64,000 bases of DNA from Escherichia phage OLB35. A model generated the notes under the pieces. It was not told the origin of the DNA. It searched no databases and was given only the letters and a program-made list of their open reading frames with translations. Both the position numbers and the translations under genes were made by a program. Position 1 is the stretch's first letter. Each line of letters starts with the position of its first letter. The stretch lies in the sequence record MH992122.1; one strand, 5' to 3'. Positions 44,625 through 45,165 of the stretch are shown one piece after another.

Positions 44625-44733
44625 CATCATCTTTATGTAAACTGTTTTGTGAAATTATTTTAGATCTTCGGCCCAATCCATCATCCTTATGTAAACTGTT
44701 TTGTGAAAATTATTTTAGATCTTCGGCCCAATC
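44625..44733. repeat. Tandem ~54-bp duplication covering the 57B 3' end and a promoter -35
   Basis: cat(c/t)(t/c)ttatgtaaactgttttgtgaaa(a)ttattttagatcttcggcccaatc occurs twice in tandem. Confidence 0.8.
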
Positions 44734-45165
44734 TAGTTTTAAGGGTTCTTTGTATTCACGGTCGAGAATAACCGGAATAGCTACATCACCACTGAATGAT
44801 AGTTGGCCAACGTTATATGATAACGTTATATGTGGAGTGTAGTCGTCGAAATCATGAGTAGCACCTAAAGCTCGTGCGTACTGATGACGACATCTAAGAT
44901 ATTCGGAATCAAGAACTAAAACCAGTACAGCGCCGTCATCGGTTTTCCATACCTCAAGGTGTCCTGATTCGGCAACAGAATAACTACCACTAGATGTAGT
45001 ATATGGTATGTTTACACGTGAATAACAAATTGTCGAATGAAGCTTTTCACGTGGTACTGGATTAGGAATTCTTAATTTGCGCTGGAGGTCTTCCAGCGCA
45101 TCAAGTGTTAATTCCGAAAATTTAGCTGCGACGTAGAGGCCTTGTGAAAAGTCCTCAAATTTCAT
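44710..45165 (-). CDS. 57B: gp57B-like 2H phosphoesterase (T4 Acb1 anti-CBASS family)
   Basis: 151 aa; two H-x-T-x motifs (HSTI, HITL) typical of 2H phosphoesterases; directly downstream of 57A. Confidence 0.75.

Follow-up and report, generated by a model that had tools for sequence, protein, structure and literature searches.

Gene content of the 57B-ipI region

The 64,000-nucleotide stretch of the Escherichia phage OLB35 record analyzed here (the window) is from a Mosigvirus, an RB69-like phage of the T4 type, and its closest record is that of Escherichia phage CCU7, with 98.3% identity over 24 kb. The minus-strand gene order around 57B matches that of T4, with gene 1 followed by 57A, 57B, ipI, and trna.4, and internal-protein (IP) debris lies between ipI and trna.4 in the window. 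The genes that make up this region are as follows.

45400..46134, minus strand: gene 1, dNMP kinase (PF21448, 4.4e-96), a synteny anchor
45165..45395, minus strand: 57A, tail-fibre chaperone (PF17594, 2.4e-24), a synteny anchor
44710..45165, minus strand: 57B (acb1) coding sequence, 151 aa, intact (open reading frame list, Pfam, PDB)
44291..44578, minus strand: ipI, internal protein I, 95 aa (PF11634, 1.1e-49), with an MKTY.EF capsid-targeting leader
43654-43839, minus strand: trna.4

The 57B-ipI locus is hyperplastic among the relatives of this phage, in which 57B is followed by ipI, by ORF156c and ipI, by ipI and Ip7, by other pairs of IP genes, or by no IP gene at all.

The products of 57B and ipI

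T4 uses Acb1 to destroy the cyclic-oligonucleotide signals of CBASS. The 151-residue product of 57B matches the Pfam profile for Acb1, PF23474, along its entire length (profile positions 1-144 of 144; 7.4e-59, 198.1 bits against a cut-off of 27), and it matches the Acb1 structure PDB 7T26 at 3.5e-59, with its HxT motifs aligned to those of the structure. Both PDB 7T26 and 7T27 are Acb1 of phage FBB1, and T4 57B itself has been identified as Acb1, an anti-CBASS 2H phosphoesterase (Hobbs et al. 2022, PMC9117128). The catalytic HxT/HxT tetrad of the enzyme is H44, T46, H113, and T115 in T4/FBB1 numbering, and residues 145-152 form a C-terminal lid (PMC9117128). This tetrad is invariant in our alignment with T4 57B, where it appears as H43, T45, H112, and T114 (H43-S-T45 and H112-I-T114), and the protein is 86% identical to T4 gp57B/Acb1 over its full length and 100% identical to the 57B proteins of RB69 and CCU7. 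It shares with T4 Acb1 the same length, the HxT/HxT tetrad, the C-terminal lid segment, and the genomic position, and its sequence offers nothing at the protein level that would set it apart from T4 Acb1 or from RB69 57B. By these measures 57B encodes an ordinary Acb1, a 2H phosphoesterase, and from its identity to the characterized T4 enzyme we infer that it has anti-CBASS activity as well.

The neighboring gene is equally conventional. IPI is an injected inhibitor of the GmrSD restriction enzyme. The 95-residue ipI product scores 166.7 bits (cut-off 25) against PF11634 (IPI_T4) and shares 87% identity with T4 IPI, the MKT.KEF capsid-targeting leader and the ...TE|A cleavage context being among the conserved parts. 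Like T4 IPI (IPI/IPI*), it is 95 residues long, begins with an MKT(Y/F)KEF leader, and is encoded after 57B, so that ipI is, from its sequence, an ordinary and genuine IPI gene; the difference from T4 is that an extra half-copy of the promoter region here precedes the ipI promoter. The sequence-only reading had placed the 151-residue protein in the Acb1 family of 2H phosphoesterases on the strength of two HxT motifs and a location equivalent to that of T4 57B, and had called the downstream gene IPI-like. The profile and structure matches, the alignment to T4 Acb1, and the conserved gene order bear out all of these assignments.

The 57B-ipI spacer is organized as a PeSL cassette

Promoter-early stem-loop (PeSL) elements are defined by a stop codon within an AT-rich tract, sigma-70-type boxes, a stem-loop that mostly overlaps the -10 box, a Shine-Dalgarno sequence, and an ATG (PMC2839356). 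They concentrate in hyperplastic regions and have been implicated in the shuffling of open reading frames (Arbiol et al. 2010, PMC2839356; Comeau et al. 2014, PMC4122927). Two such elements flank ipI in the window.

44608..44642, minus strand: predicted ipI early-type promoter and stem-loop, the PeSL core (promoter scan 44641..44613, and folds)
44583-44589, minus strand: ipI Shine-Dalgarno sequence, AAGGAAA
44258..44286, minus strand: second PeSL, downstream of ipI (TTTACA, 17 nt, TATAAT; 11/12 matches in the promoter scan)

The predicted ipI promoter consists of a TTTACA -35 box, a 17-nt spacer, and a TG-extended -10 box, TACTAT (44613-44618). The stop codon of 57B, TAA, lies upstream of this -35 in the AT-rich tract AAAATAATTT(T)CACAAAACA, and the arms of the stem-loop, GGATGATGG and CTATCATCC (44624-44631 and 44608-44614), place the -10 within the loop and the 3' arm. 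The core is predicted to fold with -11.5 kcal/mol as RNA (z -2.4) and -5.0 kcal/mol as DNA. In the second PeSL, an 11-bp stem encloses the -10 (-18.5 kcal/mol, z -4.9), and the element belongs to a dispersed repeat family, D1, with four copies within 36-46 kb of the window. T4 shows this PeSL layout on both sides of ipI, with stems of other sequence; its GenBank record, AF158101, carries no promoter features at this place, and the T4 ipI promoter was assigned from sequence only. Because the stems are in different registers across PeSL types, hairpins were judged by per-sequence folds, and one is predicted in all eight intact elements, whose stem sequences vary, from RB69-like phages, T4, and other relatives (DNA folds of -5.0 to -8.8 kcal/mol, z -1.9 to -6.4).

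No copy of the late promoter TATAAATA lies close to ipI; the coding-strand match nearest to it is inside gene 1 (45750-45757). A direct reading of the 57B-ipI spacer shows no MotA box, TGCTT. The early-type promoter is thus the only recognizable promoter of ipI. With its sigma-70-type boxes, its AT-rich tract containing a stop codon, its stem-loop, and repeats that flank variable open reading frames, the spacer carries the features of the published PeSL cassette, and the IP-gene content between PeSL elements differs among relatives. It has the same composite of stop codon and AT tract, -35, -10, stem-loop, Shine-Dalgarno sequence, and ATG, and it too flanks small open reading frames in a hyperplastic region. 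In sequence terms, then, the 57B-ipI spacer is a PeSL cassette with a predicted promoter and stem-loop.

A tandem duplication at the 3' end of 57B

Tandem Repeats Finder reports an array at 44624-44733 with a period of 54, 2.0 copies, 96% matches, and a score of 206. Only three tandem arrays occur in the 64-kb window, which puts the 57B-ipI repeat far beyond chance. In plus-strand coordinates, the copies occupy 44624-44677 (54 nt, ipI-proximal) and 44678-44732 (55 nt, 57B-proximal), and with the shared base at 44733 the array totals 110 nt. Its parts are the following.

44678..44733, minus strand: 57B-proximal copy, 55 nt plus one shared base (T-run of four, G allele)
44710-44733, minus strand: real last seven codons and stop of 57B, in the 57B-proximal copy
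44690-44696, minus strand: orphan -35, GTTTACA, in the 57B-proximal copy, with no -10
44624..44677, minus strand: ipI-proximal copy, 54 nt (T-run of three, A allele)
44655-44678, minus strand: untranslated, out-of-frame copy of the 57B end, in the ipI-proximal copy
44636-44642, minus strand: functional -35 of the predicted promoter, GTTTACA, in the ipI-proximal copy

On the coding strand, the unit begins with GATTGGGCCGAAGATCTAAAATAA, the 24 nt that form codons 145-151 of 57B and its stop (D W A E D L K stop), and continues with TTT(T)CACAAAACA, GTTTACA, and TAA(G/A)GATGATG. Two changes distinguish the copies, a G/A substitution and an indel in the T-run (T4/T3). The 57B-proximal copy contains the 5' stem arm as GGATGATG, with the G allele, and has neither a -10 nor a 3' arm; the ipI-proximal copy contains the 5' stem arm as AGATGATG, with the A allele. 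At the junction, GGATGATG|GATTGGG, there is 1 nt (G) of microhomology, and the joint falls inside the 5' arm of the hairpin. Read in this way, the duplicated unit is the 5' half of a PeSL cassette together with 24 nt of coding sequence. A tandem repeat of ~54 bp containing the last seven 57B codons and GTTTACA had already been recognized in the sequence-only reading, and that description is exact to the base; the promoter scan likewise agrees with its assignment of GTTTACA as the -35 of ipI, finding TTTACA separated by 17 nt from a TACTAT preceded by TG. The identification of the unit as half of a known PeSL cassette in a known hyperplastic locus, and the possibility of an assembly artefact, go beyond that reading.

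The sequences on either side of the repeat are mosaic. RB69 has identical DNA across the 57B-proximal copy and the 3' half of 57B, and ipI with its downstream PeSL (44198-44593) is 100% identical in DNA to CCU7. The ipI promoter core, on the other hand, is JK45/PECP20-like, with four mismatches to CCU7 at 44594-44632.

Two coding interpretations of the repeat were considered and rejected. An in-frame duplication of the Acb1 C-terminal lid does not fit a second copy that follows the stop codon, with a 55-nt unit that shifts the frame. A 33-aa open reading frame with a TTG start (44575-44676) is not a credible new gene; the same frame is present in single-copy relatives, it overlaps the promoter, and nothing supports it.

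The duplication is private to the OLB35 genome

The protein encoded by 57B is common, the identical 151-aa sequence being present in 211 blocks of the assembly collection. For the ten places shown of these 211 blocks, the next called gene starts 78-79 nt after the end of 57B in eight and 25 nt after it in two, and in the window this distance is 132 nt. Among phage records, the 30 best of 154 matches cover the 241-nt query with a 187-nt span, as expected of a single copy. We also fetched 20 relatives, including ten independent ENA/NCBI/Logan contigs that encode the identical 57B protein; all 20 relatives that match the pattern of the unit have one copy of it, and eight of the ten identical-protein places are among them. 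A BLAST search with the 59 nt centered on the junction found no match in 50,697 phage records, and the exact 30-mer across the junction is absent from IMG/VR. The exact junction 21-mer has two metagenome and two GTDB matches, all of them in unrelated GC-rich or bacterial contexts and attributable to chance. The 54-bp duplication is private to the OLB35 genome. We looked for an independent assembly of OLB35 through its unique proteins (39-aa and 77/49-aa chimeric open reading frames) and through IPI, and none is on record.

The 20 relatives are polymorphic at both of the sites where the copies differ, with the T-run of three in seven of them and the A allele in five. When each copy is used to reconstruct a single-copy allele, the result aligns in one piece to relatives, with 99.5% identity for the 57B-proximal copy and 99.0% for the ipI-proximal copy. 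The combination found in the ipI-proximal copy, T3 with A, does not occur as a single-copy allele in any relative, for which 99.0% is the best match. These observations bear on the earlier description of the duplication as recent: its restriction to a single genome agrees with that description, but the copies differ at 2/55 positions, and a fresh duplication within one genome should have produced identical copies.

Predicted effects on expression

The duplication leaves the acb1 open reading frame and its stop codon unchanged. As 55 is not a multiple of 3, the frame is lost in the second copy of DWAEDLK, which lies past the stop. At its native distance from ipI, the ipI-proximal copy still has a complete promoter, together with ~36 nt of native upstream sequence and the hairpin. 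For the truncated 57B-proximal copy, no hairpin is predicted (-0.5 kcal/mol, z +0.79), and the promoter scan finds no -10 at any permitted spacing from the orphan -35 and calls no promoter there. For the RNA of the duplicated arrangement, the predicted fold is more stable than that of the single-copy form (-29.5 versus -14.3 kcal/mol), with a new long-range stem that encloses the acb1 stop and is built from AGAUCU and GGCC palindromes present in each copy. With a complete promoter next to ipI and an extra copy that has neither a -10 nor a hairpin, the effect on expression is predicted to be small. This anatomy speaks against the suggestion of the sequence-only reading that expression of the IPI-like gene may be altered. 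We infer that the duplication is a near-neutral scar, which would have at most a small effect on the expression of ipI or acb1.

The G/A polymorphism in the 5' stem arm shifts the predicted stability of the ipI hairpin, from -7.9 kcal/mol with G to -5.0 kcal/mol with A (DNA folds). Relatives commonly carry either allele, and the strength of the hairpin would therefore seem to be under no tight constraint.

Origin of the duplication

Previous work has described Acb1, IPI, and the PeSL cassette, and also how plastic the internal-protein locus is. The sole new item at this locus is the strain-specific duplication of 54 bp, half a cassette, which alters no protein and, as far as the sequence allows one to judge, probably leaves regulation unaltered as well. 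Our preferred interpretation, to which we assign a probability of about 0.6, is that this is a private half-PeSL duplication that arose by non-allelic joining and persists as a near-neutral scar beside a normal Acb1 and a normal IPI. An illegitimate, non-allelic joining event would have duplicated the 5' half of the PeSL along with the last 24 nt of 57B, most likely by unequal crossover, or by a template switch at the hairpin, between co-infecting Mosigvirus genomes that carried different alleles; alternatively, a later allelic exchange at one of the repeat copies could have introduced the differences. Unequal crossover between co-infecting phages is a known route of rearrangement in the hyperplastic regions of T4-type phages. 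It is favored here over simple slippage because the copies differ at two sites that are polymorphic among relatives. Copies that had just formed should match each other, and if their 3.6% divergence were due to age the duplication should be shared with other genomes, so that a crossover between phages reconciles these facts most simply. Direct repeats of 54 nt would be likely to be lost again through recombination.

Neither of two published classes of rearrangement describes this event. In the published PeSL events, complete PeSLs recombine by homology, and the open reading frame between them is inserted or deleted. Here the 5' half of a single PeSL has been duplicated with 24 nt of coding sequence, the copies directly adjoin each other, and the joint is non-homologous, with 1 nt in common. 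Integration of a PeSL mini-circle was considered as the origin and rejected, since it would place a trna.4/57B joint downstream of ipI and the observed order differs. In T4, short homologies of 6-10 bp give rise to tandem duplications and deletions (Srikant, Guegler & Laub 2022, PMC9391042, and earlier T4 work cited there). The OLB35 repeat resembles those amplifications in its head-to-tail layout, its single hybrid junction, and its position in a T-even accessory region by anti-defence genes. The T4 amplifications, however, encompass whole genes, range in length from hundreds to thousands of bp, form at microhomologies of 6-10 bp, and increase gene dosage (PMC9391042), whereas the OLB35 unit is 54 bp long, amplifies no gene and no complete promoter, and has a single nucleotide (G) of microhomology at its junction. 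In these respects the 57B-ipI repeat behaves like an illegitimate tandem duplication that falls outside the T4 microhomology rule. Older duplications of gene ends with promoters, described below, are common to many independent Mosigviruses, which indicates that such events occur naturally.

The repeat might also have been created during assembly, if two contig ends, or both ends of one circular contig, that overlapped by about k = 55 nt had been concatenated untrimmed and the circularly permuted genome then re-oriented. The number 55 is a common de Bruijn k-mer, and an untrimmed contig overlap would give such a repeat. A unit of 54/55 nt in an array of exactly 110 nt (2 x 55) fits this account, as does a junction found in no other sequence across four public collections; the T-run difference is a typical homopolymer error, and PeSL hairpins have been reported to block sequencing polymerases (PMC2839356). 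Yet k-mer overlaps are exact, and the two copies differ by a substitution and an indel at sites that are naturally polymorphic. Over 12.3 kb of flanking conserved genes, moreover, there is a single indel relative to CCU7 and no excess of homopolymer indels, and comparable tandem duplications nearby are confirmed by many independent genomes. We consider an artefact unlikely, though by no means far-fetched. A biological alternative is that a donor patch carrying ipI was inserted through two illegitimate joints that left redundant ends on both sides. Such a patch would start at codon 145 of 57B, include both PeSLs with ipI between them, and end with the initial 42 nt of trna.4; the redundant ends would be the 54-bp repeat upstream and a duplicated PeSL and trna.4 5' end downstream. 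Consistent with this scenario, a second private scar, in which the trna.4 5' end and a PeSL are duplicated, lies 0.4 kb away, the sequence between the scars (44198-44593) is 100% identical to CCU7 although its flanks are not, the putative patch reads GATT at both ends, and the repeat copies have diverged on each side as donor and recipient alleles would. Against it, two illegitimate joints are needed in one event, the promoter part is not CCU7-like (the four mismatches at 44594-44632), the IP debris is a multi-step patchwork so that the scars may be independent, and the published PeSL mini-circle integration model predicts another gene order. A donor-patched ipI cassette is possible but less parsimonious than the preferred non-allelic duplication, and on the whole we find it improbable.

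The duplication could finally have been selected as a regulatory variant, if the extra UP/-35 sequence or the new RNA structure changed the amount or timing of IPI or Acb1 on a host with a GmrSD- or CBASS-type defence. It sits exactly between two anti-defence genes, the RNA of the duplicated form is predicted to be the more stable one and to place a stem around the acb1 stop, the ipI-proximal A allele is predicted to weaken the hairpin, and T4 is known to adapt by amplifying anti-defence loci (PMC9391042). Neither a coding sequence nor a complete promoter has been amplified, however; the functional promoter remains as it was, upstream context included, no -10 accompanies the orphan -35, the duplication is found in one genome only, and the allele with the weaker hairpin is also present in single-copy relatives. 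Selection for such a variant strikes us as very improbable. A further proposal, improbable in our estimation but worth stating, is that the half-PeSL duplication is an intermediate in the birth of a cassette, or that it tunes the relative output of acb1 and ipI through the orphan UP/-35 and RNA structure around the acb1 stop. In cassette birth, duplication of a gene end and half a promoter would supply direct repeats, and new open reading frames could subsequently emerge or be taken up between these; the 175-bp and B-X-A-B-A duplications, which are older and common to many Mosigviruses, may offer a parallel.

Taken by itself, the duplication matters little, as it lies between textbook T-even anti-defence genes whose proteins are unchanged, in a PeSL and a hyperplastic region that have been described. 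Should it be real, as we favor, it is a minor and datable case of non-homologous joining at a promoter hairpin, with co-infecting phages as the probable partners, and contributes one anecdote on the rearrangement of such regions; should it be an artefact, its detection is useful for curating the OLB35 genome record.

Further rearrangements in the window and its relatives

The second private scar is located downstream of ipI, at 43813-44240 on the minus strand. The 5' end of trna.4 and a PeSL are repeated at 43813-43853 and 44193-44233, with 93% identity between the copies. An internal-protein gene that is chimeric and truncated at its 5' end is fused to a copy of the PeSL with the initial 42 nt of trna.4 (44193-44303). 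The chimeric gene corresponds to a 77-aa open reading frame with a GTG start (43909-44142) and is a patchwork of Ip7-like sequence and sequence from a different IP gene. Beyond it come the real PeSL and trna.4 (43654-43839). No phage record has this arrangement, the best being G2285, which covers 86% of it in three pieces.

Gene-end duplications that are not private to OLB35 occur in the same region of the window. A 175-bp unit, comprising the 3' end of a gene and a PeSL-type promoter, is repeated in tandem at 40375-40699 (1.8 copies, 96% identical), and a third promoter copy with a duplicated 5' start of a gene (88 nt, 99%) lies nearby at 40096-40233. The 175-bp tandem is absent from CCU7 and ST2 and has the same length in many other Mosigviruses, which marks it as an old, natural duplication. 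At 37934-38322 on the minus strand, exact (100%) repeats of 67 nt and 85 nt form the order B-X-A-B-A. This arrangement yields a 64-aa open reading frame (38009-38203) whose C terminus duplicates that of the upstream 140-aa open reading frame (38248-38670). It appears to be common to most relatives, with at least 80% of the query covered in 136 of 140 related records and a span of 550-551 nt in all 12 that were listed; CCU7 carries a deletion derivative of it, B-A only.

Two further polymorphisms concern whole cassettes. In two RB69-like contigs from IMG/VR (L004 and L006, ~2930-3030), there is no IP gene, and 57B is followed by a single hybrid PeSL and then by trna.4, an arrangement that looks like a PeSL-to-PeSL deletion of the ipI cassette. 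CCU7 contains ~1.1 kb with two small open reading frames (L046 7371-8488) that is missing from the window at 40970-40977, and this cassette polymorphism adjoins a match to the late promoter TATAAATA at 40971-40978.
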